Positions 1 to 47,002 of a DNA stretch of 64,000 nucleotides are shown here, in pieces. Location: positions 310,001 through 374,000 of the forward strand of contig OZ237744.1 in NCBI GenBank assembly GCA_965178125.1. Reading direction: 5' to 3'. Each line of letters starts with the position of its first letter. The first letter of the stretch is position 1. Position numbers and translations under genes: made by a program. This DNA comes from Bilabrum cf. latius (Eukaryota). The notes below the pieces were generated by a model. It made no database searches, had not been told where the DNA came from, and saw only the letters and a program-made list of their open reading frames with translations.

Positions 1-3
1 GCC

Positions 4-1492: not shown

Positions 1493-1539
1493 TGCGGCCC
1501 CACGCGAGAAACGCATCATGTGCGGCCCCACGCGAGAAA
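1493..1539. repeat. 19-nt direct repeat flanking a stop codon
   Basis: tgcggccccacgcgagaaa at 1493-1511 and 1521-1539, on either side of the minus-strand TGA at 1516-1518. Confidence 0.85.
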
Positions 1540-21044: not shown

Positions 21045-21319
21045 TAGTCAACGACCCAAAGCTTCCGAAGCACGTATACAGCTGAGCGGGAAGAATTCTG
21101 CAGTTAAAATGCGAAAAGTTGGTGGCAACTAAGTATGAAATAAATACAAGGATGATTAAATCGCAGAAAAATCGCCAGCCTGAACGAATTTCAGCTGCAC
21201 TGGATACAGGCGATCATTTTGCATTCTTGCCGAACGTTCGAAATGCTCTACACGCGGGTTCGCTGCCACCGGCTGCCAGCAATTTGCCAATTCATCGTTT
21301 GCCCGCCCGTTGTGCCATT
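21045..21319. promoter_or_regulatory. Bidirectional promoter, GBP / MARCH6-like
   Basis: 275 bp, more AT-rich, between divergent ATGs. Contains TGCCGAACGTTCGA at 21228-21241. Confidence 0.5.
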
Positions 21320-24300
21320 ATGGATGGCAGTGACGATCACCATGAAGAAGTGTGTCGGATTTGTCTTGACATCGAGCAGGAAAACATGCCGCTCATTCGG
21401 CCTTGCCTGTGCACAGGGAGCTCAGGCTATGTCCATTCAGAATGCCTGGAGGAATGGCTGAAAGAATAGCACCGAGGCGCCAAAGGAAAAGAGAGATGCG
21501 ATACGTGAGTAATGTTTGATCCGCTCTACCTGTCTGTGCTCCTCGATTCTTTCCATGCATGTGCACACGCATCTCCTCGACGTGGTGCGCAGGTGCAAGG
21601 CTCGGTTTCACTGGAAAAAGACATACACAGACGGGGCCCCACAAGGGGGAATGCCGTGGTATGCTTGGCCATTTGCACTGTTCCCGATCGGTAGTCGCGC
21701 TGCTATGTTTATCATGTGGCACAGCGTTCGCGGGCTGTTCGTGCAGGCATTCATTTTCACATTCCATGTCCTTGCAATGGGAGCAGCTGCTGTAACAATG
21801 AGCGTTGTGGTTCCGAAATTCGTTGGATCAGTGCATCCTCCGTGGTTTGGACACATCGAGCAGGACTCTTTGGAGGCCCTGATGGCCCCCCTACCATGGT
21901 ACGATGGCAGCCCCATTCAAGCCGACCTCTTGCAGTTCTTGTCTCAGTTGCTCGCCACGGCCGTCACGGTGCTGCTTTGCACACTGATCGTCGACTGTGG
22001 CATATCACTTGGAGGTGTGGTCATCGAGAGAGTCGCCAGCCGCAACCGAAGGTACCTCCTGAGCCAACTGCCGTATCACGGCAGCTTTGACGAGCTCAAC
22101 ACGGAGCACCAGACGTCGCTCGTGCGGTCTATCCTGTACTTTGACGTGACCAGTATGCGAGAAGTTCGGCTCCGGATGGAAGGCAATTTGGTTCGCTAGA
22201 AGCTTCAAAGAGAGGACAAGGAGGACCGCGAGAGGAAGGCACGCTTCAAGCACGCCCAGGGTGCGCTCCTGGCCTGGTCACTGCGGCAGCAATCAAGAGA
22301 GCGCAGAGAGACTCGAGCAGGAAGCAGCACTGCATTTTCGAATCGATCGTACCGATTGCGCGACTCTATGAGGGGGGAGTCTTCTAGGCTAGGGTCGGCA
22401 TAGGAACATCCGCCACCTCATCCCGACGGTTCTGAGCCATCGCGGCTGCAAGCTGACGCTTCCTCGGCGCCGTCGTCGTCGTCCTCCAGCTGGCTCGGCG
22501 CGAACTGGTCCCATGCCAAGCGGTTCTATTCCATGTGGTTCGGCTACAGAACTGCTGCAGACGCCACCGCCCTCCGCATTGAGAAGCTGGTGAGGAAGAC
22601 GACGAAGCAAGGCATGCCCAGATACATTGAGTTCAGAGCGCGGGTGCTGAGCAGGCTGCTCTGGTAGCTCCTGCTGGGTTTCTCGGACCTCGGAGAGATA
22701 CGCAACTGGAACCAGTTCATTGAATTGGCGCTGCTTGCCCTTGTGAATGCGATTCTCAGCATCGCCACTGGGTGCTTCACCGTGCTACTTTGCGGGTCGC
22801 TCGTCATTGCCGGCCAGCAGACCGCTATGGCGGTGAGAGAGCGATCCATCGGCCCTCTCTTGTTCGATAATAGTGCCCCGCTGTACCCTGTGTCGACCGT
22901 TCCGTCCAATTTGCTGGATGGTGTGGGCTTCATGGTTGACCCAAGCTCTTCTGAGCACCACAGCCCAACGGTGCACATGGGCGTGGCGACGTCGGCCTGG
23001 CACGACAGGTACAGCTGGCACATGGAAGGACACTCTGACGGGGAGCTGCAGGTGCCAGCACCGCAGCTTCCTCGGTCCAGCAACCTTTCTGACATCACTG
23101 GTGGCCTTTGGCTGCAGAGTATGTGGGCTAGCATGGTTGGTCACGCGAGGCAGGACTATTACCACCCGCTTAGTGCATCGATGGGGGGCCCCTTGGCTGC
23201 TAACAAGCCAGTCGATTTCTCCGATGCTCGATCGCAGTAGCATGATTTTGCCAGCCTGGACGGCTGGCCGATAGCCGGGACATTGAAAACAAAGAACACT
23301 GCGGATTTCTACAGGTATGCCCCCGGCAGGAGACTGCAACCGAGCATGAGGCACCTAGTGCCCCTCACTGGTCGTGGGTCGATCGCACCTCTCTTTCAAG
23401 AAGGTGCGAACATGAGCGATCCCATGCTTCCCGTGAACGTGTCAACAGCTGGTTTTGTCGTGCGATTTGGAACTGTTTCGGAGTGGAGCCGCGCGGTGAA
23501 CGGCTCTATGCTGAGCGGTGCATCACCCGGTCAAGCATGGAGTGGTATAGAGTCTGTTCTAGCGCGGTCGCTGGAAGTGAACCACGGAATGCAGCTGTCT
23601 AACGACTCCGGGCCGCTGCACCCAGCCAAGTTGGCTGGATGCCTCTTGCGCGTGCACTGTGAGCTGTCGCTGGCGTGCGATCGACCGGGTCAGGACTGGC
23701 TCGCCAGCCGGTGTCCAGACGGTGACAGTATCCGGACCGAAATAATCAAAGCCATTTTCGAGAGTGGGGCTCGGTCTGGACCTGCGAGCATAGACAGCCT
23801 TATTGCGAGGATTTGGTCTGCAAATCCAATCAACGCCAGCAGCAGCACACAATTACCCGCAGTTGGACCTAGCTCCAATGCATCTGTTTCTGCGACTTCA
23901 ACTCCGAGGGCGTTGCTATCGATTGACGAGGTTGATGAATTCGTCCGGAATGGGTCAGATGGCCTAATCACGGCGAACGGCAGCCTACATGGGGCCATGC
24001 AGTCTAGTCTACAGTTGTCTCAATTGCTTGGGGCCCCCTCATCGAGGCCATCTTGGCTCCCGCTGGGAGTAAGCACTGCTGCACGCGCTTTAGGAAAAGT
24101 TGTCATGTTCATATATGACCTGCCAAGAGCGCTGCTGCTCGGGCAGATCGCGTTCCCAAGAATGAACCGGTAGCAAGCCAAGGCCCATACTCGCAACCAC
24201 CAGACCAGTGCAACCTCTTTAGGAAACGCATTTAGTTCGGATGGGTCTGCCAAGCGAGACAGCTCTGACGCGTGGCATGCCGTTCACCAGGTTTCCGACT

Positions 24301-27300
24301 TCATCGTCAAGTCAACGCCATTGTGGCGTGTAGACTTGGTGTGCCTCGCGCTGCTTGGGCTGGCGCAAGTCGGCATTTTCCTCGCAGCACTCTACCTAGC
24401 ATCGTGTGTTGTTGGCTGCGTGCTACCAATGTCACTGCTAGTTTTCTTCCAAAGTGCACGAGCCGTGCACGGACTGCGCGTGTCGGATGCAGCCAGACAT
24501 ACCTTCTTGGTTCGGCCCGCCTCGAAGCTTCTGCAGTGCAGCGAGCTCGTTCTGGAAATGCTGCTAGGGCTGCCAGTCTAGTACGCCATAGTGATTGGAA
24601 AGGCATGTGTCATTTTCGCCTGGTATAGCGCCGGACTTTGTCTGTGCGCGCATTTTCTGGTATGTGTCGCGCTGCAGGCCTCGGCAGCGCCGTCGCTTGG
24701 TGCCAATTTCCTCGCGACTGCAACCGTATCGGCCTTGACTGGTGATTTAAATATCCTAGCCAGTGCGATTGCTTGGGGCTGCATATGGATTTAGATCGTG
24801 AATATGGTGCTTGTGCCGTGCAGGGCATTACTTAGAGACGGAATTGCGGATTGGATTGTGCCAGTCCCGGCTTCGCCAACCACGACGTGCAACCGTTGCC
24901 TGAGGACCACAACCAGCAAGCACGTATACGGGTCTCTCACCGCGTTGGTATCGATAGCTTTTGCAATGACGGTCTGCGTGTTGATCCCTTCCATGGTTCG
25001 GCAGGCAAGCATGCTTCCTGGTAGTACCGTGGAGCAGCTCGTCCGCGACCAACGATCACTCGTGCGTGAACTTGCCTTGAACGCATCCGCAAGCTGGGAA
25101 ACACAACTTGCAAATTCTTGGAATCAAGGGGATGCCAAGATCCTTCAGGCAGAGCACGATGAGAGAGTTGCAGGGTCTTTGCGACCATTGCAGTATGCCG
25201 CCTTACTAGTACCTGCAGAGGCAACGAAGCTACCGAATAGCACCGGATTCAGCGTCCAGAGCATACCCAAGGATATCTTGAAAAGGGACGGTGTAGTTAC
25301 GCTATTTGCTTTTTGGGAGGAGGACGGCCCCTCCGAGGTACAAAGTAGACACGATCGGCCCCTCATGCACAGCTCGCTCTCATCCGCCCGATCGAATCTC
25401 GAAGCCCTTGCAAAGGTGCAGTGGGAGGATAGCTTGGCGATGCGTGTTGCGGGTTTTGGCTAGCATGACGGGTCACCACCGCGTTTTTTGACATCGGTTC
25501 CCATCAGCCCACGCGGCTAGTAGGCACAAGGAGCGTATGATCATAATGGCGCTAGCTCGGCTGCATGCAGCCAAACACTGCGGCTTGCCATGCAGCTAGG
25601 ATATAGCGTGCCAAAGTTTGACCCCATCCATCCGTTCACCGCGCGCATACCTATTGTTGATGCAAAGCGTAGGCTTGCGTCAATTGGTCGAAGCACGACT
25701 GGATTTCCTCCAAAGATCGACTGGGCAAGCTACGAACAAGCGCTGGCAGGCTCCAAGCCGCGGGCCAGTGCCGCAAGTCGCAGCAGGTAGGATGGTGTGG
25801 TCGATCTGGACACATTTGTGCCTCCTTACCTTAGGTCCTCACTCGCGGAACACTTGCCGTACTGGTATCCTGGTCGAAGTTTGGTGCGCTCGGCACTCAA
25901 CGCTTCCGTCTTACCGATGGTTGCCTCGAATTCAACCCACGTCGACATGATCAGAGAGGAGCTGACTGCCTCGATCCGCTTGGCTGCCAGCCGATACGGA
26001 TGGAAATTCCGCAGGACGGGTGGATCCCCCATTCTTGACAACTGGAAGTCTCTTTCGCTGGACGTGCACCCTTCAGACTATGCTCTTGCGACAGTAGAGA
26101 ACATGTATGGCATGATGGTGCGGCTTGTGCACTTGGCTCAGCACGAGATCCTTCCAGAGGCGCAGGCCCTCTATGATGAGAGATACGCCGTCTTTGAGAG
26201 TGGTGCTGGTTTCTATGAGACTCTTCTAGGGCAGAATCTTACTTCTGACGCGAATGCTACGATGCAGGCATTCTGGGCATCGCTGCGTGCTCTCGATGAC
26301 ACTGGTATCCTCATCGACACCGCGCTCAAGTTGTCTGCATTTCTCAATGCCAGAAGCACCCAAGCCAGTCATACGGCGCAATCTGCTCCAGTTCCGCCAG
26401 GAGTCACAGCGCAAGACTACTAGAACTACTTGGTAGCGCTCGCTCACACCGACCCGCGCTGGGATGCCTGCGGAGGGACCGAGGATACCTCTGACAGGCT
26501 CGCACCATCTCATTCCGCTGCTTCTTGCGAACCAAGAGACTACTTCGGCTGGTCAACTTCTGAGCGGACTCGACTAGCCAAGGGCCGTAAATCCTAGGCG
26601 AGCTCCATGTCTCGACGGCTCTTGCACCGTGGTCGCGCCGCCGCCGGCAAGGCTGCCAGGGCGATTCTGTCTGACCTTCTGGCACAAGCACGGCAGCCGT
26701 CCAGCATGTATAGCCCGAGAACGCACCTGTCAACTCCAGATGCGCTGATTGATGCCATTGATGACGTTGTAGACGAAGGAACTACTGTGCAAATGAGCCT
26801 ATCGCAGGGTTTGCGACGTGCAGCGACACGAATAGAAACTGCCCTGCGGTGTGCCAGTGGCTCTGCGACTCCCAGCGACGATTGCAGCATCTCGATCTTT
26901 AGCCAAGCTCACGCCAAGGTGCGAGTCATCCGACCGATGAGACTAGCAAAGCATACAGAGAGCGGCCCACAAGGCAAACCGACAAGTGACTCTGGCTAGC
27001 TTGAAGATTTCAAGAACACCCCGCGCGCTGGTGTGATAGGCACAATCACAGAGCCGATGATGCCAAACGACGCTTGGGCTGCTATCGAGATGCAGCTTCG
27101 CAGATTCTTGGCAGCCGGCCGGAACCAGTCGCGGTTTTTGACATCTTCTCAGCAGTACGAAATTGGGACGTGGGATGTCTACGGGCAGCCGAACACGCGA
27201 AGCAGATTGCCCATGCTCACGGACAACAGCAGCACTGTATCCACGCGGCTGCATCCAGCCAAGATTGTAAGAAATTACACAGGACCATCCGTGCACTACC

Positions 27301-30300
27301 CAGTTGCGATAGCTCGCTCTGCCCGCTAGTTTGTCGGCAATCTCGACCAGGAAGGTCTCGCATCAGCAATCGGGACTCTTGGCGAACGCGTGGGTTTATC
27401 GAGAGAGAGCTTCAGACGTGCTGTAGTTTTGCGTGGCACCGTGCTTGCAGATATCCCTCAATCAATTGGAGTTAACGAAGGGGTGAGATCGAAGTCGACG
27501 AGCGCCGCTGCGAGCAAGCAAGCCACAGTTCTGTCTCCAGGTGAGCAGCATTTGGAGTCGCTCAAAGCCACGGATGTCATGTGGATAGATGCTAAAAAGC
27601 GAAACCTAGAGGAGTTTTTCGGGTGCAACGAACCGGTCAGGGCAGCAACCACCACGGCACGACAGCAATTCCAGCCTACCTGTGCAGCTGGCGTGGTAAG
27701 CTACGGTCCGCACTTGGTGAAAGGAAACTGTCTGGCCAGACTGTCTACGCTTCGACAAGTTGCCGGAGACGAGACTCCCGTCATTATTCCCAGAGTCTCA
27801 CGTGATACCCCGCAGTGGCGCGGCAGGTCATTTCTGTTTGCTTATGCGAGAAGCACTTTTGTCTTGATCGGAAATTTCAGCTGGAGGGTTGGGACTGCAT
27901 CGGCTAGGGTGGGCATCCCTTTTCGAGGTGTATTTAGCAGGCTTGCTCGCAGGCTTGGCGCCGTCATTGACTTCGGCAGCTAGATTCACCCAGATCTGCT
28001 GGCCAGCATGCACAGCAGCGACTACCAGTTGCTGGCATACGCCATTCTGATCGCTCTGTACATTATCCCTGGGCTAGCGATGTGGTCACAAACCGTCATT
28101 TCGTGGGCATTTGAAACGATGGGTTGCTTGTTTTGCGTGTAGGATGTGTTGCTTCCGCCTGTCAATGTGTTGCGGGCACGCGCACCGGAGGTCATTGTGC
28201 GCTTGCCCTCCACACCCGGTCCTGCGGAGCAGCTCGACCCGCAAGGATCCGCTTCATCAGGTGTAGATGTTGCCGCCGCTGCTCCGACCAAGATTGAATC
28301 GTTCGTGCACTCTGGCATCTCTGCTTCCAAGGCAGACAGACTGCTGCCCGGAACTCTAAAAGAAAGCAGTGTGCTCGTCAAGGCGCGAGACATCGCCAAT
28401 TTTGGCAATTCTGCGGCTGAATGTGGTGCTGTGAGTGAGATCCGTGTCCCTGCATGCTCCGTGGAGGTACAAGTGTTCGGAACCATGAATCGTCTGGCAA
28501 AGGCGTTGGTAGACGTGGAACGACGCAAAATCCTGCAGGAAGTTGCCATGAGGCCGCGTCACTATAGGGAACTTGCTGCGCGAGGCGTCACCCCCAGCTA
28601 GAGCATCAAGCAACTGAGATACGGGCAGATGGTCAGGGCCAGAAAGCTGTCTGCGGCGTCGCCCCACTTCAACGGTGACAGCAAGCTGCAGCAAGAGTTC
28701 TGGCAAACCCCGCACCGAAAGAGTATCTCGCGGCACGAGCCAATGATAGTGGATGTCATCGTCGGCCGGAATCTTGTACGCAAATGGTACAGGCACCTCA
28801 GAGCCCCCAACCGCTCGATGTACGGTCACAGGCAGTCAGATGTGTACGACTACGCTGTCCAAGCCAAGCAGTAGGACCATTATATCGTGCGGGCACCGGC
28901 TGGAAAGCGGGCCAGAAAGCTCGCTCAGAAGTCGTTACAGGTTCTTTCGGAACTCGAATCTGGTTTACCAAAGCCTCACAGAGGCACTCCTGCGGCATAT
29001 ACGGCGCCTATCGACGAGAACCACCGAGCTGTGTTGAAGCCGGCTGTAGGCCATCCGAAAGGTACCGGAGAAAACACGGAGTCGCAATCAGCAGCTACTC
29101 CAGATTTTTGTGAACTTGATGCTACTACTGGCGCAGAGAGCGAGGCATTGGAGACGGTGTTCGCAATGGCTGCCGCAACTGAGCTGCGCAAACGAAGGAT
29201 GAATCGTGCTACGAGACTCGCGGCAAAGCGGGCCCGCGAGCACCGCAGACAAGCCAAGACAGGATCGGCGAGACATGGTGCAAAACCAAGGTTTCAAGCT
29301 AATTTAAGTTCATCCCAAGTGCATGGACCGTCTGGTTCGGATCTCTCTGGCTCGGATTCCTCTGATGGCGATAGCCTCCGGGCTACTCGCAGCCTACTGT
29401 CGAAGCCACGAGGTGCCTCGACGCCAAAGAGGTCTGTCTCTCGGAAACGCAGACGTATGGCAAATCATCGCAAAGAGCAGAGCAGGAGCAGCAGCAAGAG
29501 CGACTCAGACGATTCATTCATGCATCCGTCGGGCGCAGCTGGCAACGAGCACTTGAGCGGCCACCCACCAACATCGTAGGGAGCTGCAGCCACCTCAGGC
29601 AGCTCTCTGCACTTGCCTGCTCTCGGTCGATACCCGCTGTCCCGACTGCCTTCGCCCGGTACGGCTGACTTCTATGCGATGGGCATGGGAGTCACAAAGG
29701 TGGACGTTTCTACGCTCGGTCGTATGGATCTCTCAGCCGATGAGACAGAAGACTCAGAGGCGTGCTTTGATGAGTACATGGATGCCTCAACGGTCCCAAG
29801 CAAGTCTCAGCTGCGGTCAAGTTCGAGAGCCGCCCGGCTGCTTCCGTTGCCGAAGAGGTACCCTGCCATGAAGCGCTCGAAGGCGAAGTCGAAAGGTAAC
29901 CTACGCGCAGGCAAGTCGTCACAAGCTGATCCGTCGGGCGAAAAGCCAGCTCCTGATGCATCGGAAAGGTCGGCTCGGGGAGCTGTATGTGCTGCTAGTG
30001 ACGGTGATCATGGGCCATCTGGTGAAGGGAATAGCGAATCAGGACTCATTGCAGGGACAGATGCAGGTACAGAGTCAGGTACAGGTACAGGTAAAGGTAC
30101 AAGGGCGGGGGTAGCGGCAAGTGCAGCAGACTCGGCCGGCAATTAGAATGACGTTGCTACCGATCATACCGACGATGGCATGGACGCCTAGGATGGGATT
30201 GAAGCTGGACAAGCAGAGCCGATTCAGGAGGCTGAACCAGCGGAGGCCGGTGACGATTTCGGACAAGATCCTCATGCAGGTTTCATTGCTTGGCTCATTC

Positions 30301-33300
30301 GAATCATCAATGAGCATCCTGCTCTAGATTACCCTTTCCGCATTTTCCTGCTAGTCCTTTCTTTTTCGCTCAGCATATTCACTTGGATCCTTGAGTGGAT
30401 TATATGGTGTCTCAAGCTGATTCTAGCTCCTCTTGAGGATGAGAATGCCTAGAATGGCCCGGAAGCAGCCGGGGGAGCTGGTCAGCCTGGTCCAGGAGCA
30501 AATGCTAGAGACGGTCGCAGAGCTGTCGAGCTCGAGCGTGCTGCTCGGATGGTGGAAGCCGCGATCGAGCGGGCCCAACTAGAACCTGATGCAGCTGCGC
30601 GAGCGCGTGCCATCGTGAGACGAGAACTGGAGAGGGCACGGGCGGCAGACAGGTAGACCAAGCCCAAGAAACGGCGACTATCCTTTGGCGACTGGCCTAG
30701 CGATTTAGAATCAGAGCCGGAAGACGACGATCAAGATGAAGATTCGTAGAAGGCAGAAATAGAGGTTGAGGAAAGTGATGGTCAGGATGGAGATTCGAAG
30801 AAGACAGCGACCGACGGAGAGGACAGCGCTGTGAGCGGTGCAGCTAGCACAATTCCAGAAGATCTGGAGGAGGAAGGGGGCGCAGGCAGCTTGCAGCTAC
30901 ACGATACAAGTGCATTTGCAACTGAAACGCGTCCTACTGACGGAGTTGCGAGAGCTTCTGATTCATTGAGCACAAAACAAGGCTAGGACGAACCAGGGAT
31001 CTTGTCAGTAGAGACTAGTGCAAGGGACGACAGGCCGAAGGCAGCTGCGGCCGATGACACGGTGAAAGAAGTGGAGGATCGCGATCTAGCAGTTGGTGCA
31101 GCGCAGGGGAAGGCGAATGACCCCAACGTCAAGCAGAGTGCCGGTGCTGTGTCGGCAGCTCGCTCGGTCGCTGCCAAGCTCCGCAAGAAGCACCCCGCAC
31201 TCGCACTGGAGATCAACCGAATACTCGCGAAGTCTGGATCGAGCTGTTCACCGCCCCCACTCCGTTCAAGAATGGTCATCGAGGCCCCTATCTGGCAAAG
31301 AGAGCTCTACACCTACTATGTGCAGAGATAGGTGGCACTTCGGACCCTGTACGGAGGGGCTGACACCTTGGATCTCATGTGGGACGCAAGAACTGTTGGA
31401 AAGTACAATATACCCGACTAGGCTCGTATCGAGAGGGAAGTCATCGAAGGGCTTGCTGACCGGTCTACTGATTCCAGTAGCAGCAGAAGTGGCACTGATT
31501 CTGAATCCGAGAACGATGCGTTGAAATCAAAGAGGCTTGGTTCAGGCACAGTGTCGCGCCCCCCCAGATCGCTGAGGCTCCTCAAGCGCCTCGTTGAGAA
31601 GAAGTGCGAGCTGGATGCCGTGGCGAATGCATCGGCGTTGCCCTTTCATCCTCCTGTCAGCAAGTCGAAGCTGCTTTGGAAAGCACGTGCGGCTGAGATT
31701 GAGAAGCGGCGTAGGGCGAAGCAGGCTAGGGCGGATAGAGAGATGCGATAGCGAGCTGATGGACACTTGGACGACCAAGATCAGGGTATCGGCGCCGGAG
31801 AACAGGTGGCTGCAGGTGTTGCTGAGCCTGGTGCTCACGCCCAGGACGAGGAGGACCTGGCTTGGGCGGGTTTGGATGGTGATGGTGATGGCGATGGGGA
31901 TGGGGACGCCAGCGATGGTGATGCTAGCGATGACACTCCGATGGATACAGTGTATGGGCTGCACAGCGCGGCGTCGCACGAAGATGCTCGAGGAGCGGCA
32001 GACCCCGCCGTTGCGGCAGATGGCTCTTGCAAGAGCACTGACGACGATGATTTCTGTAATCAAGGTGGTGCAGATGAGATCGAGAACCGGCCATCTAACG
32101 ACAGCGCAGCTGGCACTGCTGTGCCTGCGGAACTCGGCAAGAGACACAAAAAAGCAGCCAGTGCCGCCGCTGAAGACAATGGTGATGGGTCGTGGAATGG
32201 CGGAGACGTTCATGATGGTGATGCCAATGACGAAGACGCTGCTGTCGGTGGTCGCGATGGTGATATGGACGTGCACCAGGACGAGTATCGTGAGGACGAG
32301 GAGGATGTCCAGGACGGCGATGCAGCCCCCGCGGATCATCCAGACCAAGCACCTCCCCTTGACGACGTGTTTGGTGCCCTGGAGCTTCCGGATGGCTACA
32401 AGGGCCTGATCGGGTTCGACCGGCAGAACAGGTCAGACGACGAGGACATGCACAGCGACGGTGTCGCAAGTGAGGCTAGCCGAGACTCGTGGTTCGACGA
32501 CATGCCTCCCGGTCCTCATGACGCGCAAGACCCCGGCATCCCGCACGACATGGCAGGATTAGGTGGGCCACGGGTGGGTGCTGGCGGTGTCGTCGTGCTG
32601 GATTTGAATGAGCACCTTGCGGATGTCGACGGCCAGGCTCAGCATGAAGCGGAGCAAGGCGGTGATGATGACGACGACGCATCTAGCTCTACCTCCTCTG
32701 ATTCTGATAGGAATGAAGGTGAAGACTCTAGCAGTGTCCCTCAGGACGCACTAGCAGCTCGGCACAAATCAGAGATAGGTGACCCAGAAGACAGTGGTGA
32801 CGAATCAGCTCAGGTCGAGGAGGCGGCAGGTGATGCAGGTTCAAACGGCATTGCCAGCAGGCGATCTTCCTCATACCATAGCGGCAGGGCTCCAACCAGT
32901 CTGAGCAGTCACAATACGCCCACCTAGTAGGAGCAGGGGTCACAGGGGTCCTCCGATCACTCGGCTAGCTAGCAATCGGTTGAGCCCGCAGACCCCCCCC
33001 TGCCTGAGTCTCCCCGTCTGCTGTCGCGCAATTCTGACCGTAGCGATGCGCTCAGTCTACCCACAGTGCGAAGCGACAGCCCGGGAGATACGTTGGAGGG
33101 ACGAGAGCTTGGATTGGTGGGTGCGGTTGCGTCAGGGAGTGCCGAGGGCGAGCACGTCAGCGACAGCGACCTTCCAACCAGCGACCACCGTCGTTGTATT
33201 GCGGATTCAGCGGCACTCGCTGGGCTCATTGAAGGCCAGCGGTTCCGTACGATTGAAAGTGACCGGTAGCTGGGGTCCAGAACTACTGTGGCTGATCTGC

Positions 33301-35171
33301 CGCCGCCTAGGCCAAACCCGAAATGGTACTACACTCCCAGCGCCTTGGAGAGATCGATCGACACCAGCTTTCCCATCAGCAAGGGAGCACAGGACAAGAT
33401 CCGCAGCAGACGGTTCCATGAGCTCGTTCCTCACGGTGCGGTCTCGCAGAAGATAACACAGATGCCTTCAGGAGTCCTCGCTAGGGTTGCTCTGCGAGTG
33501 GAGAAAGAGTTGCGTGAGTCTGTTCCGAAGAGAAAGAGTTCGGGCGCGTCGTTGCGTAGGAGAAGTCTCACCCCCGACACTAAGAGGTCGGGAAACGATG
33601 TATCGAACATTTGGATATCCTTTTGCAAGCATGGGTTCAAGCTGCTGCGATACTCTGTGATGCTGCCTCTGATGGCCTTGTGTCTCGTCCTGCTGGCGCC
33701 TTTGCTGAGCGGGTTGGGAGTGCGGACTATGCAGGTAGTTGGTAGGCTGACGATTTCGGTCGCTGGCCCTCTTTCGCAAGATTACGACGCTATTCAGCCA
33801 ATGTCTTTGCTTGTCGGGTTAGTTGTTGCATCGGTTGCAACAAGGTGCATATATGACATGTGCTTTTCTGTGTGCCTTGCTGTGGGGTCCTTTGCCAGGC
33901 GAGTATCCTTCCAGTGTCTCCTGCGGCAAAGGGGTTGCAGCCTGTCCATGACTCGGGCGGTGCTATTTTGCTGCTGGCCGCTGGCTGAGAGCATGTGGCT
34001 GCAGAGCATCCGCAACTAGCTCTTGGTGCACTTTGGAAACCGCCCGCCTCGCCGTATGGGCCTTGGCAGGCTACTATGGATGCTCGCCCAGACGTTTATG
34101 CTGCTTGTGGCGGCCCCAATGGCAATAGGCTGCATCATTATGCGTGCAATTTACAAGGAGAATTGGCTCGCCGTGCTAGTCTTCTTGCCAGGGGGGCACA
34201 GCAGCCCTGGGATGGGCCGCCTGCGGGACGAGTTCTGGAGACAGCAGCCGGACCTTGTTGCGATAGGTGGTACCACCACTCAATGGCTGCATGACTGGGG
34301 CATCATGGGGTCACCCGATGCTCAAGATCATCCGTTATGGTCAGTGCAGTGGGAAGTGCTCGTTGCCCTGTTTGTCGCATGGATGGTGGGTACGGTTGTA
34401 GTGTATGCGCTGTCAATACCCGGCATTGTGCCAGTGGCTGACGTCCTTTATTTGCGGTCTGCCGTTCCAGAGTGCGTAGTCGCTGCTTTTGCTGCCTTCG
34501 GTGTGATTGCCATGGTGGCTAGCCGTCCACTCGACCCGGTGGACTTTTTGTCATCGCCAGCAGGACAGGTGCCTGGTACGGTCGCACCTGATTACGCCAG
34601 CGACGCGATCCCAACCCCGGTGCCAGAGGTATCCAGTGCGAACACCACGAGTCTATTGTAGGATAATCTATCGGCTCAGGGGGGGGATGGCTCTTCTATT
34701 GACGCTGCTCCTGCACCGGGCTCACTGGTGGCCACTGCCCTCTACGTGTTCAGCGTGCTTGACTGGCCCGCACAGGTTTAGAAGGGGCTGGTGCCAGCCT
34801 GGCAATGGCTAAGCGGGCTTGATCTTGGCAAAGATATGTCGGTTGAGGTAGCTGCCTACCTGGCCGAGCAGGATGGGACCTTGAACGCTGCATAGCTGCC
34901 CTGGGGCAAGCCTCCTCTTGATGCAGCGGTCGCTACACTGGTGCCTGGGTTGCGGGTCCTATTTCGGTTGGGGTACACGGTGGGGGCGTACGGGCTGGCT
35001 GCTTTTGTGCTTTGGTTTGCGTTCAGCTCGCAGCTGAAGCAAGTGCACGACTACTTTTACGACCAGCTGTATCTCAAGGGGAGGTCTGTCAAGGAGATGC
35101 CTGACAAGGCCCGCAAATGGCTGAGGAAGAAGATGGAAGAAGATAGCCCAAGGGCTCTGCTGGGGGACTAA
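21320..35171 (+). CDS. Giant RING-CH (RINGv) multi-pass membrane E3 ligase, MARCH6/Doa10-like (~4587 aa)
   Basis: N-terminal CRIC...LIRPCLCTGSSGYVHSECLEEW...CDTC is completed by intron 21505-21592. Exon 2 (21593-35171) has no in-frame TAA/TGA until TAA 35169. Several hydrophobic blocks. C-terminal VHDYFYDQLYLKGRSVKE resembles the MARCH6/Doa10 C-terminal element (IKNDKYLVGQRL). Confidence 0.8.
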
Positions 35172-35303
35172 AAGGATGTACTTGGTATTCAATTTTCGTC
35201 AGATGATTGCAACGACTGTATACAGTTATAGAATACATTAAGACTCAACAGTGTGCCTGACATCGCAGCAATGCCATGAAATGTATACAACGACACTGGA
35301 CGC

Positions 35304-36575
35304 TCAGCTCAATGCAATCTCGCTGCGGTGATGCCCGACCTCAGCGATGGCGCACTTCATCGGAGCAGTGAGTCCTCTTGGGGCCATCAGCCCGTGTGCT
35401 TCGACAAAACAGCTCGGTATGTAGATGGCAGCCGCGCCGCCGCGCCTCTCGGCTGAAGCCGATGTCGGCAAAGTAGCCATTGCTTCCTCCTTCTCCCCCT
35501 GCCTCGGGGCAGAAGAAGAGACTGCCAGTGATGCTGCACCCACGGAATCGCACGCATCACTACTCGCGGTCGCTGGCCCCTTGCTGCTGCGAGCACCAGC
35601 ACTTGCACTGAGTGCCCCCAGAGAAGCTGGCCCCGTGCTGCCTGCCCCTGCATCAGGTGGTACTTTTGCTGATTGTGATTGCGCGATCGTGTCTCGAACT
35701 TTCAGGTCAGTACGCTTTTCGTGTTCTGACGACTCTTTCGTATGGCCTGCTCCTGTTCCTGCCCCCGTGACTCCTTGTTTTGCAGCTGTGCTTGCTGGGC
35801 TAGATGTGGAAGACGATGGAACGATCGCTCCTGCTCCATCTGCACAGCCCGATAATGCAGAAGATGGAGCAATTGAGGATAAACACTGACCGGGTTCTTC
35901 ATCTTGCCATATCTCGGCGAGTGCGATCGCCTTGGGGTGGCTGCTCCACGCGAAGGAGACGTGAGGGCAGTGGCCGGGGTATGCGGGTGGACAGCCAAGG
36001 GCCCGACAATGCGCCGAAACGCGATCCGCAAGAGCAACAGCCTGTTCTTTGTACCCTCTGAGACCCAAGCCAAGAAACACTTTGGACCTGTCGTCGTTTA
36101 GGAAAACCATCGGACGCGGGTCTAAGGAGGCTGCCCTTGCCAAGCCATGCCTTGTCGTACAGGCAGCATGCAGCCGTGGGAGGACCTATTGTACGATGTG
36201 GCTTCGAACTGAAAATGGTCGGCACAGTGAAATGTGGGCCGCAGCTCTCGAATCCACCACAATGGAAGCAGTTGAGGCGATATCTATGACATGCCATTGC
36301 ACTGTCGCGAGCCGTGCTTGTTCGAAAAAAGCTTTGAAGCACATGTTTCGCCACTTAGCGACCGCAGCAATAGTACGATTATTCATTATCCAGGGAATCC
36401 AAGCAGCAACTGCAAATGAAGCGGGGGTTTTGGACAGTGGTTGGGCTGCCAGTATACGCCTCTTCTTTGGTATCCCTCCGGCTTCACCTGCACCTCGATC
36501 GCGTTTCGTGCCTAAAGATGCAACGCCGCAACTGTCGTCATCTGATGAGCTTTCATACACACCTAAAGCGTCCAT
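35304..36575 (-). CDS. USB1: U6 snRNA phosphodiesterase USB1-like (2H phosphoesterase)
   Basis: N-terminal ALGVYESSSDDD, two HxS motifs (AHISLCR, PHVSFAW), VFLNDDRSKVFLGL. ORFs 36186..36719 and 35304..36143 are in frame across TAG 36186. Ends at TGA. Confidence 0.8.
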
Positions 36576-36683
36576 CCAGTGCGGTTGAAATTTTGTCGGG
36601 CGTTTTGCAGTACAATGCAGTACAGTTTGGCTTCGTGAACGTTCTTCGCAGGGCTCACCAACAAGATTTCCATTATTGTGAAT
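36576..36683. promoter_or_regulatory. 108-bp bidirectional promoter with HSE-like TTCnnGAAnnTTC
   Basis: Lies between divergent ATGs at 36575 and 36684 and contains TTCgtGAAcgTTC at 36632-36644. Confidence 0.5.
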
Positions 36684-37439
36684 ATGGCCGGCGATAAGCG
36701 CCAAATCCCTTGGAAACAACTGTCTGTATCGAAATCATGGTCTCCTGATGATGTTTGGTCGGAGGAAACGGGTCTATCTCCCACGTGGAGAATGTTCTTG
36801 CTTGGTGATGGGAGCCCGACAAGACACCTACGGCTGTTAACAGGATCCAAGACTGAGGTTGATGTTCTTGGGATGCTACCAGTAGGGAAGGATAGCTGTG
36901 GTGCTCCATTAGAGGTGGAGCAGGTCGCCAGTCCCTGGCTTTTAAGGCAGGTCTTCTTGCGAAATAGCCGAGGCGAACGCCTGGGCTATGCAGCATCGTG
37001 GTGGAATGAGGAAGAAGTTAAGCGATATCTCGAGGACACATCAATACCAATATGGCTGTCCCTCGCAAAGCACAAGGTTGAAATATTTCGAGAGATTTGC
37101 GGGCTGTGCGAGGGCACCAACGAATGGCTCGCGAAATCGTTTGGGTACGACGGCCCCTTCTTTGGCAGGCACTACGTCTTCTGGCACGACAAAAAGCCAC
37201 TAACTCTCATATACGAAGTATTTTCTCCCCATTTGGAACGGTACCTCGGCCCAGTGCGAGCACCAGGGCCCAGCCCCTGCCTTGGCCCAGCCACGTCATC
37301 ATCAGAGGCTGCCTTCGCCGGCGCTTCGCTTCCAGACATCTCGCTGGCACCCGCGGAGGAACAGGAAGCAAAATCGAGCGATCTAGTAACAGGAGAACCC
37401 AGCTCTCCTGCCACCGGTCGAAGCTCCGGGACGTCGTGA
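36684..37439 (+). CDS. ycf21: Ycf21/DUF98-type chorismate pyruvate-lyase (cyanobacterial UbiC-like)
   Basis: LLGDGSPTRHLRLLTG, RQVFLR..GERLGYAASWW, PIWLSL, GPFFGRHYVFWHDKKPLTLIYEVFSP closely match the cyanobacterial/red-plastid Ycf21 family as I recall it. Intronless, no TAG, ends at TGA. Confidence 0.85.
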   Translation: MAGDKRQIPWKQLSVSKSWSPDDVWSEETGLSPTWRMFLLGDGSPTRHLRLLTGSKTEVDVLGMLPVGKDSCGAPLEVEQVASPWLLRQVFLRNSRGERLGYAASWWNEEEVKRYLEDTSIPIWLSLAKHKVEIFREICGLCEGTNEWLAKSFGYDGPFFGRHYVFWHDKKPLTLIYEVFSPHLERYLGPVRAPGPSPCLGPATSSSEAAFAGASLPDISLAPAEEQEAKSSDLVTGEPSSPATGRSSGTS

Positions 37440-38382: not shown

Positions 38383-40043
38383 ATGTTGGCCCGTCTTTCA
38401 TCTCGAGTTTCGCGCGGTGCTTCACGCATGACTAAGAGTCTTGCAATGGCAAGCTCAGCTGGCTCGTCCAGGCGCTTCATTTCGTTTGATCTGACGGAAG
38501 ACTAGCGAGCTCTGCAAAACACGGCTAGGGAGTTCGCTTTGAAGGAGATGATCCCGGTCGAGCGCAAGTACGACGAGTCTATGGAGTACCCTCTTGATGT
38601 TTTTGACAAGGCATGGGAGCTTGGTCTCGTGAACTCCCACATTCCCGAGGTCAGAACCGAATCCAGTCGTTGCCAATCGGCCACATCAATCACGACACTT
38701 CGCCTAGTTTGTAGCCCATTGTATCGTTGCTGTGCTCGACTTCTACGCAGGACTGTGGAGGACTTGGATTGCATTCTCTTGAGGGTGTGATCATTGGCGA
38801 GGAGATGGCATACGGGTGCACTGGCATGATGACTGCCATTGAGGCCAACTCGCTGGTGAGAGCGAGCAAAGGAGCGACATCGCCGAGCATTGGAGCGCTC
38901 GGTCGTTTGTCGTATCGTATTTTTTGAGGCACTATCCCAAACTTAAACCTCTTTAGGCGCCCGAGCCTTTCTGCTGGATCTTCGTGCTTCTTCTATGCTG
39001 CCACTTGCTCGCCCGCTCGCAGGCAGAAGCCCCTTTGATCGTCGCCGGCAGCGACGCTCTCAAGAAGAAATACCTCGGCAAGATGACCGAGGAGCCCTTC
39101 CAGGCCGCATACTGCGTCACCGAGCCCCAGGCAGGCTCCGACGTGGCAGGCACCAAGACCCACGCCAAGAAGGTCGGCGACAAGTGGGTCCTGAACGGGA
39201 ACAAGATGTGGATCACCAACGGCGGGGCACCCAGGGTAGACTGGTACTTTGTCATGGCAAAGACCGACGAGTCTGCCAACGCCGGGTCTGCCTTCACCGG
39301 ATTCATCGTGGACGCCAACAGCCCGGGGATCACCTAGGGCAAGAAGGAGATCAACATGGGCCAGAGGTGCAGCGACACCCGCGCCATCTTCTTCGAGGAC
39401 GTGGAGATTCCCGATGAGAACCGCGTCGGAGACGTGGGATTCGGATTCAAGGTGGCCATGAAGGCCTTCGACTTCACCAGGCCCCCGTGAGGCATTTTTG
39501 TGTGTCCGATCGGAGCTAGTCGGTTGCCCAATTCGCCTCGTCTCCAAGGCACAGTCTGCATGATTGGCCCCCCAGCCCCCTCTCCGCTGTACGCCGCCCT
39601 CTATATTCGTCCGCAGTGTCGCCGCCGGTGCCGTGGGTCTCTCCCGCCGCGCTCTCGACGAGGCCATCAAGTACTCCCTCGAGAGGAAGACCTTCGGGAA
39701 GCCCATCGCGGCCCACCAGGCCATCAGCTTCAAGATCGCCGACCTGGCCACTGAGATTGAGGCCGCTCGCCTGCTCACCTACAAGTCGGCTTCCCTCGTG
39801 GACAACGGCAAGCGCAACACGCACGTGGCCTCTATGGCCAAGCGGTTCGCTGGCGATCTCGTGCAGAAGGCTACGTACGAGGCCATCCAGGTCTTCGGTG
39901 GTGCCGGGTTCAACACCGAGTACCCCGTGGAGAAGCTGTACCGCGACGCCCGCATCTACGCGCTGTACGAGGGCACGTCCGAGATCCAGAAGGTCATCAT
40001 CAGCCGCGATATTCTGGGCAACCCCGACCTCGTCACCCCGTGA
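38383..40043 (+). CDS. ACADM: Medium-chain acyl-CoA dehydrogenase, mitochondrial, 4 exons
   Basis: Arg/Ser-rich presequence. Motifs [76 protein letters not shown]. Introns 38650-38750, 38856-39022, 39487-39616. TAG at 38503 and 39335, ends at TGA. Confidence 0.95.
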
Positions 40044-40428
40044 AGAAGGGAAAGCGTGATTTGATTGATAGAGTTCTTGCGTTTGAGTGAGGCGCAGGGC
40101 GAGTGGAAGACCAAGGGGTTCCAACTTGCGGTAGACGGTGCAGTTGGAGGTCTGCAGTTCTCGTGCGTCTTGGTACGTGTTCTCTCCAAAAGCTCCGCCA
40201 CTAGCACATGCCAACTAGTATCCGCATACAGACGACTCACCACTCGCACTCCGCTGGACTTCCTATCCTCTGCTCTGATCACCAGAGCAGGCAGCGGAAC
40301 CTCGACCCGCGCAGGTGCTCCAGCTGCCCATTGGCACGCAAATTCGACGAGACATACGTCTTAAGCGGCATGAACTAATGGAAGATTGTGTACGATAGGC
40401 CATAAATGCCCCAAACGACCTAGACAGC

Positions 40429-43400
40429 ATGCCTAGCGTTTGCAGGGGGCTTGCATAGAAGTTGGTTTTAAACGGTTTACCTCTTCGAGCTAGCCAAGTT
40501 GTCCCTCTATTTGCCGAAGACGAGCCTCTAGCTAATGCAATATTAAGGTCTTTAGACAGCTCGGGTGGCAGTGCCGCGACTGCGCCAACTCTGCTGGCTT
40601 CAGTGCAACTGGCCGTTGCCGACGTTCAAGAAATCGCAAGCAAGATGGGCGCAATGTGGCCGTGCGTGCTCGCAATTGTTACCTCGGAATACAATGCAGA
40701 ATCTAGATTACTTCAGCTGCTGCGAGATGCTGGTCTTTCAATGACAGGGTAGGGTGCTGGAGGGTACGTTTTGTCGCTCCATGCGTTCAAGCCCGGCTTT
40801 CCTCCACTGCTAGTCAGCAGAGGCAATGTAGGTGGAAACGGTGCAGCGGTGTCGAAGCTTGATCCAATGAATTGTTCTGGTAGCCGTGGGGTGGACCTTC
40901 ATAAGCATGTAGCAATCCGTGCGAGCCAGCCAAAGCCGGCTGGGGATACTGGCAGGCTGCAATCGTGGCAACGCTTGGAACCGCCATAGCTTGCGGTTGA
41001 ATCAAGCGGGATACTCAGTTCGCAGCAGCCACCCAGCGTGTACGCCAGCGTGTCGCCGAGCAACGACCCGATCGAGGATGCTCACTTCACGTTCTTTGAG
41101 CCGAGGTCGCGGTGCACGGTCGTGGGCGTTCTGGACGGGCACGGGGGCGACCACTGCGCCGATTTCGTGCGGCAAACACTCCCGCCCTTGTTGGCCACGC
41201 ATCTTCACAGGCTCGGACCGGCTCCTGCAGCGACTGTGACTGGGGCAGTGGCAGGGGCTAGCGACTCGGCTTTTCGAAGCGCGCCGTCGCCGTCCATGAC
41301 CTTGGCGTAGTGGCTGGAATCGATTCGCAAGAGCCTCATGCACGCGTTCGTGGAAGTGGATTTACTGTTCCGCAAGTCGCTCGCGGCGCCCGTTCGGAAG
41401 AACAACTCCAGGGGCCGCATACTGGGATGCCACTACAACGCGGGCGCCTGCGGGCTAGTGGTGGTGCTCGGGGGCGGGCATGCTGTCAGCGCCAATGTGG
41501 GCGACAGTAGGGCCGTGATGGGGTCTGCCGTGCCTATTGCCGGCTCCCCTAGTAGCAGTAGCAGCAATGCCAGGAGTGCTGAGGGCCTCCATGCAGCCTC
41601 GTCCTCGTCGGGTATGCAGGCTTCATCTACTGGTAGTGTTGCGCTTGCTCCGTCTGCGTCTCCTCCAGGTGCCGATAGCAACCTGCCCAGTCCAGTGGAA
41701 CCCGAGTGCGAGATGCTTTGCCCTACCGGACTGACCAATGAGGAGTACGCTATCCTTGCTGGGGTCAATCCAGTCAGGGTGAGGCCCAAGCCACTCACCA
41801 CCGACCACAACTGCAGGAATCCACAGGAGCGAGCAGCCGTATTTCGGCGAACCACAGACCCAATCCCGTTTCGAAACAGGCCAATTGTATCAGCTTCCAA
41901 GCAGCGCGGATCACAGGCAGCTAGATCTACAGCGGTGAGCCCGGCCGTGGCCTCGGTGCCGCCTCAGCATCGGGCCTCCAAGTAGGCAGGCAAGCCAGAC
42001 AGCAAGCATTCGCCCAGCGCTGTATTGCCGGTGCCTGCACCTGCATCTAGCAGCTAGGAGGCTCCAGGGCGGCTAGAGGGGCAGTCAGCAGCTATGGCAT
42101 CCGAGGAATTTTCGGGGCGGAGCGCCGACGAGAACACGGATGAGGCGCTGTCGATGGAGGCAAGCGCACTCTCTCTCGACCTCGACCTGGATCCACCCGA
42201 GCTGAACGATGGGCGTCACTTGGGCGGCAGAGGCGGTACTGTGTAGGCCGCGGTTGAACCCTCGTCGCCAAATTCCGGGCCTGCAGCCGCGAAGACTGCG
42301 GGAGCTGGTGCCTCATCGTCCGGCAGCCATCTTGGAGCATCGTCTGGCAGAGGGCACTCGAAGCCAGCAACTGCGGCCCGCTCCGAGTTGAAGCCAGCCA
42401 GGGGAGGGCTACAAGTGTAGTCCTCGGCGGGGGCTATCCAGTCGTCTTCGTCATCCATAAAGGCCGCATCGTCCGCCCGATCGACCCGCCCGTCAGCGCA
42501 AGGCCAGGCATTCGACCGGCTCGCGGGAGTAATGATGGTCACTCGGGCGTTCGGAAATGCGTTTCTCAAGTGGCCAGGGTACTCCGTGGGGCCCTTCAGT
42601 GACCACCTTCCGTACCTCACTGCGCTGCCTGAGGTAACAGTGACGAAATTGAGCCCCGTTGACCTATTTCTAGTGGTTGCTTGCGATGGCGTGTGGGAAA
42701 ACGTGTCCAACCAGCAGGTAGTCAACGCGGTCACCGGCCGGCTGTACGTCGAGCACTGTTCTCGTCGAGCTGCCGCGGAGTACGCTTGGCTTAGCAGGCT
42801 AGACGCTGCCGCGGCAAGATCTTCCTCCTCGTCCAATGCATCGTCGCCACAGTCAGTCGAGGCCGAAGCAGAGCTGAACGCAGGTGCTGCACCTGGCACA
42901 GTCGGTGCAGTTGGTCGTGCTCCAATAGCAGGAGTGAAACGGGCCCGCGACTCCAGTAAGTCTTTGGAGGACTGCCACCTAGCCGTGCCCCAGCTGCCTG
43001 GATTGCCAGTGTAGTTGGCATCTGGTACGAGTGCCCCAGTTGCGGTATCCGAGTCGGTTGTGCAGCGAACCATAGCTCCTTTCTCTGCATTTCCCGTGGT
43101 CTCAGCCGAGATTCCACGCAGTAGAATGCAGGTAGTCTCACATGCGAGCGGTGTCCTGTAGGGATATCATTCTGTTACCCCGAGCGCGGAATCCTCCAAC
43201 CAGCAGCGACCTGTCAGTGCTGCTGCAACCTCATCCTCATCATCATCATCTGCCTCAAGTACAGAGACCTCACCTCGGAAGTCAAGGCGAGAGGCAAGCA
43301 CAGGCACCGGCACGGCAAGGGGTTGCTTGACGGAGTACCAGATGACGGCATCGCTCGCCTCTAGACTCGCACCTCGCCTGGGCTGGGCCGAGAGCCTCGA

Positions 43401-44379
43401 CCACCGATCGCATGGGACCAAGGCCACGATCGATCTGGCCAACACACGAGATGCCCAGCACCCCGGCATTGAAATGGCCAGGCTAGAATCAATGCGAGTG
43501 AAGCACGTTTGTGGCAAGGGCGCAGGCAAGCCCACAGCTGGTAATCGTGCAACGAAGGGACGCTCTCCATACTCCAGCCCTTCCTCTCCCAAACACCACG
43601 GCAGCCATGACGGCGCTCATGACAGGCCGCCCTTTATGAGACCCAGATCTGGCCTGCAGCTGCGGCGCGTAGATTCCGCGAGCTCGGCGACGTCTCCCAC
43701 TGTTGACGGGTCAGGGGATGCAAAAGGGGCCAGCCAGCCCTCGCCCGATTCTGGAACTTACGCCACTAGAGGTGGTAAATATGGCAACTCTTCGATTGGA
43801 AGCGACACTAGATCTGGTGGTAGAAGCAGTGGGCGAGGCGGACCGGTTGCTGCGAGTGGGAGCGGCAGCAGCAGTGCGCATGCACCGATGGGCGGCAGCC
43901 GTGGGGCTGCAAGCAGCGAGATTCCACCGGCTTCATCGCATGCGTTGCAGCGGCTCGCCTGGCTCCACTTCGGACAGGAGGCGCTGCCCGCCTTGTACGA
44001 CGGCCGTGCCGGTGACTGTGCCCCAGCAGTCACCGGAAATGCAGCGTGGCGCCGCCGTCTTCTGGACCCTCGCTTGAATGATCCGGCCGCGAGAGTCGTC
44101 GGGGCTGCTCTTGTTCGGTCTTCGCAGCGGAGGAAGCAGCCGATGAAGGTTCGGGCGCTCCTCCGCGTGCCTCCGGGTAAGAAACGGAGGCAGATGGTCG
44201 ATGATGTGACATGCATTGTTGTGATGCTGCCGGGTGCCGATGAGTTGCTCACGCCGCGCTGGTCCGCGACGAGCACGATGGTGCAACCGGGTGGTGGCAA
44301 CAGTGAGCTGCAACCCAGCGGTCCGAGCGATTCACCTGTGCGATGGCATAAACGAGCGAAGATTGTAACCGAAAACTGA
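40429..44379 (+). CDS. PP2C/PPM-family protein phosphatase with long low-complexity insertions (~1316 aa)
   Basis: NDPIEDAH, GVLDGHGG, ANVGDSRAV, LTTDHN, VTRAFGN, PYLTALPEV, FLVVACDGVWE, DDVTCIVV all lie in one frame with only TAG interruptions. Ends at TGA 44377. Confidence 0.88.
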
Positions 44380-45317: not shown

Positions 45318-46055
45318 TCAGAAGCTCGGGGGTGGCAGGGCCGATTCCATGAACGTCTTGACGGCCATGGGGCGATCATAGATACTGAGGTACTCGTCAG
45401 CACTCGCAGCCTTGTTCATCCTGGCGAGCCTGACCGCCACTGAATCAGGGGGCAGCATAGAAACGTGCTTGCTCTGCGCGCTGTCCCCGAACGCATCGAA
45501 TTCGTGGTCTGAGGCCGAGAGCGGCGGAGCATGCTTGGATAGTTCCAAGATTCGTCGGTAGACGGACCAGCAGGCTGGCGCAGGGTCCTCTGCATTGAAT
45601 GGCACTTCGCCGTACGCTCCAGGCGAGATTGAGGTCGCAATCGTGACTAGCCTGCCAAACAGGGGCAACGGACTGTCCTCAGTCGATGCAAGAATTCGAA
45701 CACTCTTAAACAATGTGAGAGTGTCCTCAGAATCTCCCCCAGCAGCCTTTGCCTTGTCGTCGTCTCCTCGTGTGTGTTTCTGGATAGCACGAACGAGGGA
45801 CACTACAGCCTCTGGCTGGCCATCCACCAACTAAAGCATGGAATTTTGCTGAACAAGAAGCAACCCGGTAAAGTGAGAATCTCGCTCTCGCTCTTCGTCT
45901 ATGAATGAATCAAAGAAAGCACTCAAGTGGTCCTGTGCGCCAGGCGCAAGCTCTGCGACCAGTAGCACGCGCGAATAGCTAACAACTTGCATCTCCTACG
46001 TCGCCACGCGATCCACAATTGATTTCATCAAATGGCCTGATGTTCCGACATCCAT
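45318..46055 (-). CDS. TEX47/C7orf62-like (BLUF-like fold) probable flagellar protein (~245 aa)
   Basis: Reading through TAG 45996 and 45831 gives SRVLLVAE...FTGLLLVQQNSML*LVDG...VRILASTEDSPLPLF, the pattern of TEX47-family proteins as I recall it. Ends at TGA 45318. Confidence 0.6.
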
Positions 46056-47002
46056 ATTTGGGCAGTGCGTCCAAAGAGTGGGGAATTCCGTCGTCAACGG
46101 ACAATGCGACAAACCGGAACTGTGGTTCGGTATTGGCACGCAAGGGTTTGGGTTAGTTATGGACTTTTGGTGGACGTAATGCAAAGATTTCCGTCCGATC
46201 GACGGATCTGCGAAGACATCTGAGTACTAGTGGGCTCTACCAAGCTATGCGATGGAGGGAGCCCTTTGCCGACGTGTCCGTGAGCCTCCCCTCCCCCACT
46301 GGCCTTCCAACCCATCCCTTCGTGTCTCCCGCACTGAACAAATATAGCGCTCAGAACTCATAGCTTGTATTTTTAGCTGCATTTGCAGTGGCACAGTCCA
46401 AAGCAGCTGATGTAGAGGTAGGACTAGCACTCCCAGCGGTGGGGCAGGAAGTGCAGCAGAGACAAGGGCATGTCATAAGACGCTGGTTGTTGGGACCCGC
46501 AGCTGTATGACAGAACTGAGGAGGTGGTGTCAATCGTTGCGCCAACGGCTTGGCCATGGACCGCGTGCATTCAGCGGAGGGGGGGTGACGAAGGGTCGCG
46601 AGACGCTAATAGCAGGATGAAGAAGGGCGCGACACGAGACATGGCCGATGAACGGTACGTACTACCAAACCGTCATTTGATGAGACGTTAGCAGCCCTTG
46701 CAAATACGGGCTGTGCTTAACCACTCTATTACTACCCGAGCAAATGCTGCTGAAACCACCCGAGCAAATGCTGCGCAAGAGGCGCGGGGATAGGTGACGG
46801 CCAGCTTGCTGCTGCAGTTGGTCGCAAACTTGGCAACCAAGAGTGGAAGCCAGTTTTAATTCCAAGTTTGTTTGATATAAACAAGCGAAGCACGACAGCG
46901 ATAGACGACGATATCGACACGAGTATCTGTGAAGCATTCTCTGCCACCCAGCAGAAAAGGATCGCGGCAGCCCGTTCTGGACTGTGTCGGAGGTGTTCGA
47001 GG

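Follow-up and report, generated by a model that had tools for sequence, protein, structure and literature searches.

A UAG-only stop reassignment, likely to glutamine, in a 64-kb window of GC-rich eukaryotic DNA whose genes end mainly in UGA

The decoupling of UAG from UAA in nuclear genetic codes was first shown in 2017, in a rhizarian that reads UAG as Leu and in Iotanema spirale, which reads it as Gln (PMC5304391). Later UAG-only cases, as described in PMC11687900, are Scotinosphaera (Ser), several phyllopharyngean ciliates and Protocruzia. The principle of UAG/UAA decoupling is therefore already established, and what we describe here can add no more than one further lineage to a known code type. 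The DNA in question is a stretch of 64 kb with a GC content of 58%, which we call the window. A first-pass annotation, made from its letters, proposed that UAG and UAA are decoupled in it. This proposal is supported within the window: TAG is a sense codon, while TAA is absent in frame from the gene interiors and is found at a gene end that is shared with a relative. The same annotation held that UAA and UAG usually move together when stops are reassigned, which agrees with the account in PMC5304391 but understates the decoupled codes that have been published.

Iotanema spirale (Fornicata) resembles the window in that UAG is the only codon to have changed meaning, probably to Gln, while UAA still ends genes (PMC5304391). 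The mechanism predicted for it in the same report, a tRNA with the anticodon CUA together with an altered eRF1, is also the one proposed below. The use of stops is different, since UAA is described there as the primary terminator, whereas TGA ends 13 of 14 genes in the window. The window is moreover GC-rich and carries a mitochondrial-type medium-chain acyl-CoA dehydrogenase (MCAD) gene, which would set its owner apart from an anaerobic fornicate such as Iotanema. The phyllopharyngean ciliates Hartmannula sinica and Trochilia petrani, as well as Protocruzia tuzeti, are like the window in using UAG for Gln only, with no hint of a dual meaning in the description of PMC11687900. In the phyllopharyngean ciliates and Protocruzia, however, UAA ends 93.5-100% of the genes aligned in that paper, while the window uses mainly TGA, and the long GC-rich genes of the window with their spliceosomal introns do not seem ciliate-like in look. 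The rhizarian exLh (UAG = Leu) and Scotinosphaera (UAG = Ser) are non-ciliate nuclear systems in which the two codons are decoupled and the UAA stop is kept (PMC5304391; PMC11687900). Here it is the residue that differs. In the window, the summed Pfam scores discussed below place Leu 16.5 and Ser 4.9 bits below Gln, and a relative of the window has Leu at 0 and Ser at 1 of 10 aligned TAG sites. The lineages with code 6 (many ciliates, hexamitin diplomonads, some Ulvophyceae, Streblomastix and, as reported, Amoeboaphelidium protococcarum) share UAG = Gln with the window, but they read UAA as Gln too, whereas TAA is a sense codon at 0 of 16,511 codons here. The GC content of Amoeboaphelidium genomes, about 40% (40.5%) according to PMC10608142, is also different from the 58% of the window, and on this ground an aphelid origin of the window was rejected. 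Among named proteins, the best match comes from a brown alga, with 46% identity over 18% of the query, which is not strong enough for a taxonomic placement. Beyond the lineages named here, we found no UAG-only code in the literature for a stramenopile, an alga or another GC-rich protist, though such a code may have been published all the same.

Our overall reading is that the window is probably nuclear DNA of a GC-rich, gene-dense eukaryote in which UAG has become a sense codon, likely for Gln, with UGA as the main stop and UAA as a rare one; this would be a code of the NCBI table 15 type. The matter is of some practical weight, since in this organism or its relatives annotation with the standard code breaks nearly every long gene. 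Every lineage that arrived at a UAG-only code independently is also a natural test of how eRF1 tells UAG from UAA, and termination mainly by UGA would add a usage pattern unlike that of Iotanema and the ciliates, whose main stop is UAA.

How long the reading frames of the window become depends on which codons are counted as stops. With TGA, TAG and TAA all counted, there are 14 ORFs of at least 300 codons, and the longest has 620. When TAG is read through (TGA and TAA as stops), the number rises to 33 and the longest ORF reaches 4,552 codons, while reading through TAA instead (TGA and TAG as stops) brings no gain, with 16 such ORFs and the longest still at 620. Ordinary eukaryotic proteins are encoded by the long frames. 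The genes lie on both strands, at a spacing of about 100-700 bp, and a few of them have short GT..AG introns. Those with a bearing on the code are the following, apart from a giant ligase gene that is laid out separately below:

1..1401, plus strand: JMJD7-like protein (cupin type), Cupin_8 match with E 9e-57; 5' end cut by the window; 3 TAG; ends in TGA
1516..7374, minus strand: ORF of 1,925 aa of no known family; 13 TAG; ends in TGA
8111..11941, minus strand: ankyrin-repeat protein; 10 TAG; ends in TGA
15036..21047, minus strand: GBP-like large GTPase with a PH domain; 19 TAG; ends in TGA
35304..36719, minus strand: HVSL/USB1-like phosphodiesterase, Pfam HVSL; 1 TAG; ends in TGA at 35304-35306
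36678-37439, plus strand: chorismate pyruvate-lyase (Rv2949c-like), E 1e-54; without TAG
38386..40043, plus strand: medium-chain acyl-CoA dehydrogenase (MCAD/ACAD) with three GT..AG introns; 2 TAG; ends in TGA at 40041-40043
40315..44379, plus strand: PP2C phosphatase with long inserts; 11 TAG; ends in TGA
45318..46472, minus strand: TEX47/BLUF-like protein; a TAG lies at a well-scored profile column; ends in TGA
46868..53292, plus strand: CHASE histidine kinase with a receiver domain, two ORFs and a probable intron; 17 TAG; ends in TGA at 53290-53292
53412..55751, minus strand: ORF of 770 aa of no known family; 5 TAG; ends in TGA
59231..64000, plus strand: ankyrin and histone-deacetylase gene that runs off the window; 10 TAG

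Some of these gene models need a comment. In the histidine kinase, Pfam finds HisKA in the first ORF and HATPase_c and Response_reg in the second, and the apparent TGA stop of the first ORF (49379-49381) is part of a GTGAGC 5' splice site; judging from the sequence, the two ORFs, joined at 49379-49458, probably belong to a single gene for a hybrid histidine kinase that has CHASE as its sensor domain. The dehydrogenase model is backed by Pfam matches on its exons, by PDB alignments with MCAD and by spliced joints in contigs of the sequencing run X5. An RNA contig of the same run (35261-36570) covers the HVSL/USB1-like gene, for which a PDB sequence search gave 0 matches. The 100 nt on the 3' side of the chorismate pyruvate-lyase TGA are repeat-like, with a GC of 0.67, and this flank makes the true end of that gene uncertain. 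Another multi-exon gene, at 11978-14904 on the plus strand, has no Pfam match. It carries a GGQSNM motif, which we take to be reminiscent of sialate O-acetylesterase-type hydrolases. A tRNA scan of the 64-kb window found 0 tRNA genes, and eRF1 is not among the genes of the window.

TAG is a frequent sense codon that is retained in mRNA and lies inside conserved genes. The codons were counted in 11 long ORFs of 466 to 4,551 codons, 8 of which contain Pfam domains. These ORFs hold 126 in-frame TAG codons and 0 TGA among 16,511 codons, and they shrink to at most 620 codons once TAG is counted as a stop. The RNA evidence comes from X5. None of the runs with matching sequence is registered as RNA; X5 is an RNA run in practice, because its contigs, unlike those of every other run, lack the three GT..AG introns of the dehydrogenase. 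UAG is present unchanged in its RNA contigs, and one of them, spanning 30614-35200, keeps 14 TAG codons of the ligase with 0 other letters against the window.

A second line of evidence comes from relatives in public data. The runs X9, X10 and X12 contain contigs that are about 10-13% different in DNA from the window over the whole 20 kb from 21001 to 41000 (547 differences over 4.4 kb, for example), which means that at least one sister species exists. The public ORF calls for the relative are broken into fragments at TAG. Three of these breaks coincide with TAGs of the window, so those positions are common to both at about 88% DNA identity. In the JMJD7-like gene, where the last TAG is 15 codons short of the stop, the relative's sequence P0001 has Q at that site and the same residues throughout the remainder of the tail. 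The 91 ligase residues that follow the last TAG of that gene are conserved to the C-terminus. A late TAG is thus read through at both of the C-termini that the relative covers. A metagenome scan with the ligase C-terminus gave 84 pattern matches with no relative among them; a relative present in those metagenomes should have matched, since one of the query peptides is identical in it.

The behavior of TAA is quite different from that of TAG. It occurs in frame at 0 of the 16,511 codons of the same 11 ORFs, whereas the two alternative frames of that DNA contain it 53 and 57 times. Outside the genes (6,376 b, both strands), TAA is found 94 times, TAG 111 times and TGA 202 times. Codons that end in A are in free use in the genes: CAA makes up 0.32 of CAR, and GAA and AAA make up 0.34 and 0.25 of their pairs. 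From the CAA share, about 59 TAA codons would be expected had TAA shared the meaning of TAG. The count is not circular, because the same long frames are obtained when TGA is the sole stop; the TGA-only frames contain just two TAAs, both in the giant ligase frame, one in an intron (21510-21512) and one at its end (35169-35171). TAA is not a sense codon within the window, and its shortfall is far beyond chance.

The ends of the genes show the same division. Of 14 gene ends, 13 are TGA, one is TAA and none is TAG, and at none of them is TAG required as a stop. TGA is a stop; in the dehydrogenase, for instance, it comes nine residues past the C-terminal domain. In three genes a TAG sits 16 to 41 codons ahead of the TGA, and translation might now and then end at such a TAG. 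We conclude that UGA is the usual terminator and UAA probably a seldom-used one, the role of TAA resting on one gene. These counts bear on several claims of the first-pass annotation. That TAG is frequent and TAA never internal is borne out by 126 against 0 in 16,511 codons, and the tally of terminal codons and internal TAA that it had asked for, made over the window, returned the 13 TGA, one TAA, no TAG and 0 internal TAA given above. Its view of TGA as the main stop stands as well, but its figure of fifteen TGA ends does not, the number being 13 of 14 ends; the TGA at 49379-49381 belongs to a splice donor.

The one TAA end is that of the giant gene, whose parts are these:

21320..21504, plus strand: exon 1, with the RING-CH (RINGv) domain (Pfam RINGv, E 8.5e-15); one in-frame TAG; GTGAGT at 21505
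21505..21592, plus strand: putative 88-nt GT..AG intron, placed by frame continuity and splice signals; separates the two members of the RING's last Cys pair and contains the upstream TAA of the frame
21593..35168, plus strand: exon 2, about 4,525 codons; 37 in-frame TAG (frame counted from 21516), no TAA
35169..35171, plus strand: TAA, terminal codon of the giant RING-CH gene
35172..35279, plus strand: 35-codon tail to the next in-frame TGA (35277-35279); one of its codons is TAG

The protein has a length of about 4.6 kaa. Its translation has hydrophobic stretches after the N-terminal RINGv domain, which fits the polytopic membrane layout of the Doa10/MARCH6 type; a phmmer search of PDB sequences with 400 aa from the N-terminus and 700 aa from the C-terminus returned no ligase (Doa10/MARCH6) match, and the conserved C-terminal element that the first-pass annotation placed just ahead of the TAA thus found no confirmation at the sequence level. 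The 88-nt intron is a prediction from signals in the DNA. At the other end of the gene, a predicted ORF fragment of the relative (P0020, 287 aa, 237/288 identical, 82%) ends at the same last residue. The 105 nt that follow the TAA have a GC of 0.39, lower than all 4,516 windows of the same size within the gene, the minimum of which is 0.41, and the tail has a GC3 of 0.37 as compared with 0.59 for the gene. The codon-usage score of the tail lies at the 39th percentile, a score that is not discriminating because the codon bias is weak. The X5 contig of 4,587 nt (30614-35200) matches the window without a single difference and stops 29 nt past the TAA; this end, if real, would mean that the TGA at 35277 is absent from the ligase mRNA, contig ends being a weak hint. 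We read the tail at 35172..35279 as 3' UTR or intergenic DNA. That the TAA at 35169 ends the translation of the giant ligase is well supported, by three independent results in a single gene. The earlier description of this locus has held up in the following points: the giant gene encodes a RING-CH protein, by its RINGv match; it ends in TAA at 35169-35171, the one TAA end among the 14; the sequence beyond is AT-rich, below every window of the gene in GC; and the roughly 36 codons that reading through to the TGA at 35277 was said to add are 35 by our count.

The residue that TAG encodes is a less clear-cut matter. At the start of the MCAD N-terminal domain, Q stands opposite the TAG in all five of the alignments listed with solved structures. 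In the TEX47/BLUF-like gene (45321-45995, minus strand), the BLUF profile scores 23.5 bits with Q at the TAG and at most 20.2 with nine other residues, while the TEX47 profile favours H at this TAG, with 36.0 against 32.1 for Q. At the 10 aligned TAG sites, the relative has Q and E three times each and H, S, W and R once each, and the three Q sites are all in well conserved contexts. Internal breaks in the relative's ORFs fall twice on a CAG and once on a GAG of the window. The Pfam bit-score sums over 9 segments with 12 TAGs do not single out Q: they are 611.9 for H, 610.7 for Q, 607.8 for E, 606.1 for K, 605.8 for S, 605.8 for D, 604.6 for R, 596.3 for Y, 594.2 for L and about 590 for W. Two of the JMJD7 TAG columns are mostly D (13/18) and R (14/18) in homologues, with Q at 1/18 in each, and the TAG columns of the GBP, JMJD7 and HDAC genes fall on variable positions or gaps in comparison with PDB homologues. 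Leu, Tyr and Trp are unlikely. On balance, Gln is the best overall reading for TAG and a likely one. The first-pass annotation had taken TAG to be Gln; the assignment stays the best available but is less clear than was assumed, with the relative split evenly between Q and E at three sites each of the 10.

Following the scheme put forward for Iotanema in PMC5304391, a tRNA with the anticodon CUA would pair with UAG and not with UAA. Such a tRNA would probably have come from a mutated copy of tRNA-Gln(CUG), the simplest origin in that scheme. The eRF1, in turn, would have lost UAG recognition, or have it weakened, while still reading UAA and UGA (PMC5304391). We would go one step further only tentatively. 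It is possible, though we would not count on it, that the window belongs to a GC-rich aerobic lineage, new to science, of which public data contain two or more relatives that differ at the species level by about 12% of their DNA, that the UAG-only code evolved independently in this lineage while termination moved nearly completely to UGA, and that UAA is a nearly abandoned stop, an intermediate on the way to the loss of UAR recognition by eRF1.

Several other explanations have to be weighed against a UAG-only code with Gln. UAG might stand for Glu, or less likely for His or some other residue. E is as frequent as Q at the relative's TAG sites, H, Q and E differ by no more than about 4 bits in their Pfam sums, and ciliates that translate UAG as Glu are known (PMC10553269). 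Such a residue is nevertheless unlikely, although of the alternatives it is the one we take most seriously: Q is found in all five MCAD alignments listed, the BLUF column favours Q by at least 3.3 bits, the Q matches sit in the most conserved contexts, and the relative's H and R would be one step from CAG, but not from GAG or TAG. Another explanation touches TAA, which could be effectively unassigned if the release factor were weak at both UAR codons and there were no tRNA for UAA; the TAA of the giant gene would then be a poor or leaky stop. Its rare use as a terminator (1/14 ends) and its absence from the interior of genes would fit. One TAA among 14 ends would, however, not lie clearly below what GC-rich genomes with the standard code have, the relative's ligase ORF stops at the same residue, and the RNA contig finishes before any further in-frame stop. 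We give an unassigned TAA a small chance, somewhat less than a residue other than Gln.

It is quite improbable that TAG sometimes also terminates, as in a context-dependent code with stop and sense meanings. The three genes with a TAG 16 to 41 codons before their TGA could be read in this way, but where the relative can be compared, what follows the last TAG is conserved as far as the TGA (JMJD7) or the TAA (ligase), and TAG is needed as a stop at 0/14 ends. Code 6, with UAA and UAG both Gln and TAA unused through GC bias, has in its favour that coupled UAR reassignment is the commonest variant (PMC5304391). It is very improbable here, given the free use of synonymous codons that end in A, the 0 TAA where about 59 would be expected, and the coincidence of the sole terminal in-frame TAA with a conserved protein end and a drop in GC. 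There is, finally, hardly any chance that the TAGs are untranslated, whether through pseudogenes or through removal of UAG by editing or micro-introns. We found no point in support of it, and the RNA contigs retain the TAGs unchanged, the ORFs are open for up to 4,551 codons but for TAG, and three TAG positions are common to the relative at about 88% DNA identity.

A few minor observations on the window may be added. Low-complexity coding stretches, acidic or made of GCA/GAC repeats (31673-32339 and about 37450), draw unrelated contigs. At such stretches the depth spikes to 312, and there are false joints at 28020, 29502 and 32320, leading to about 37450. The ligase and USB1-like genes are convergent, with their stop codons 132 bp apart (35172-35303); the RNA contigs that end at 35200 and start at 35261 would give them 3' UTRs of roughly 29 and 43 nt. 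A TGTA word is repeated 5-25 nt on the 3' side of the stops of several genes (at 35178, 35282, 53310 and 57140, for example), and this recurrent word may be part of a polyadenylation signal.
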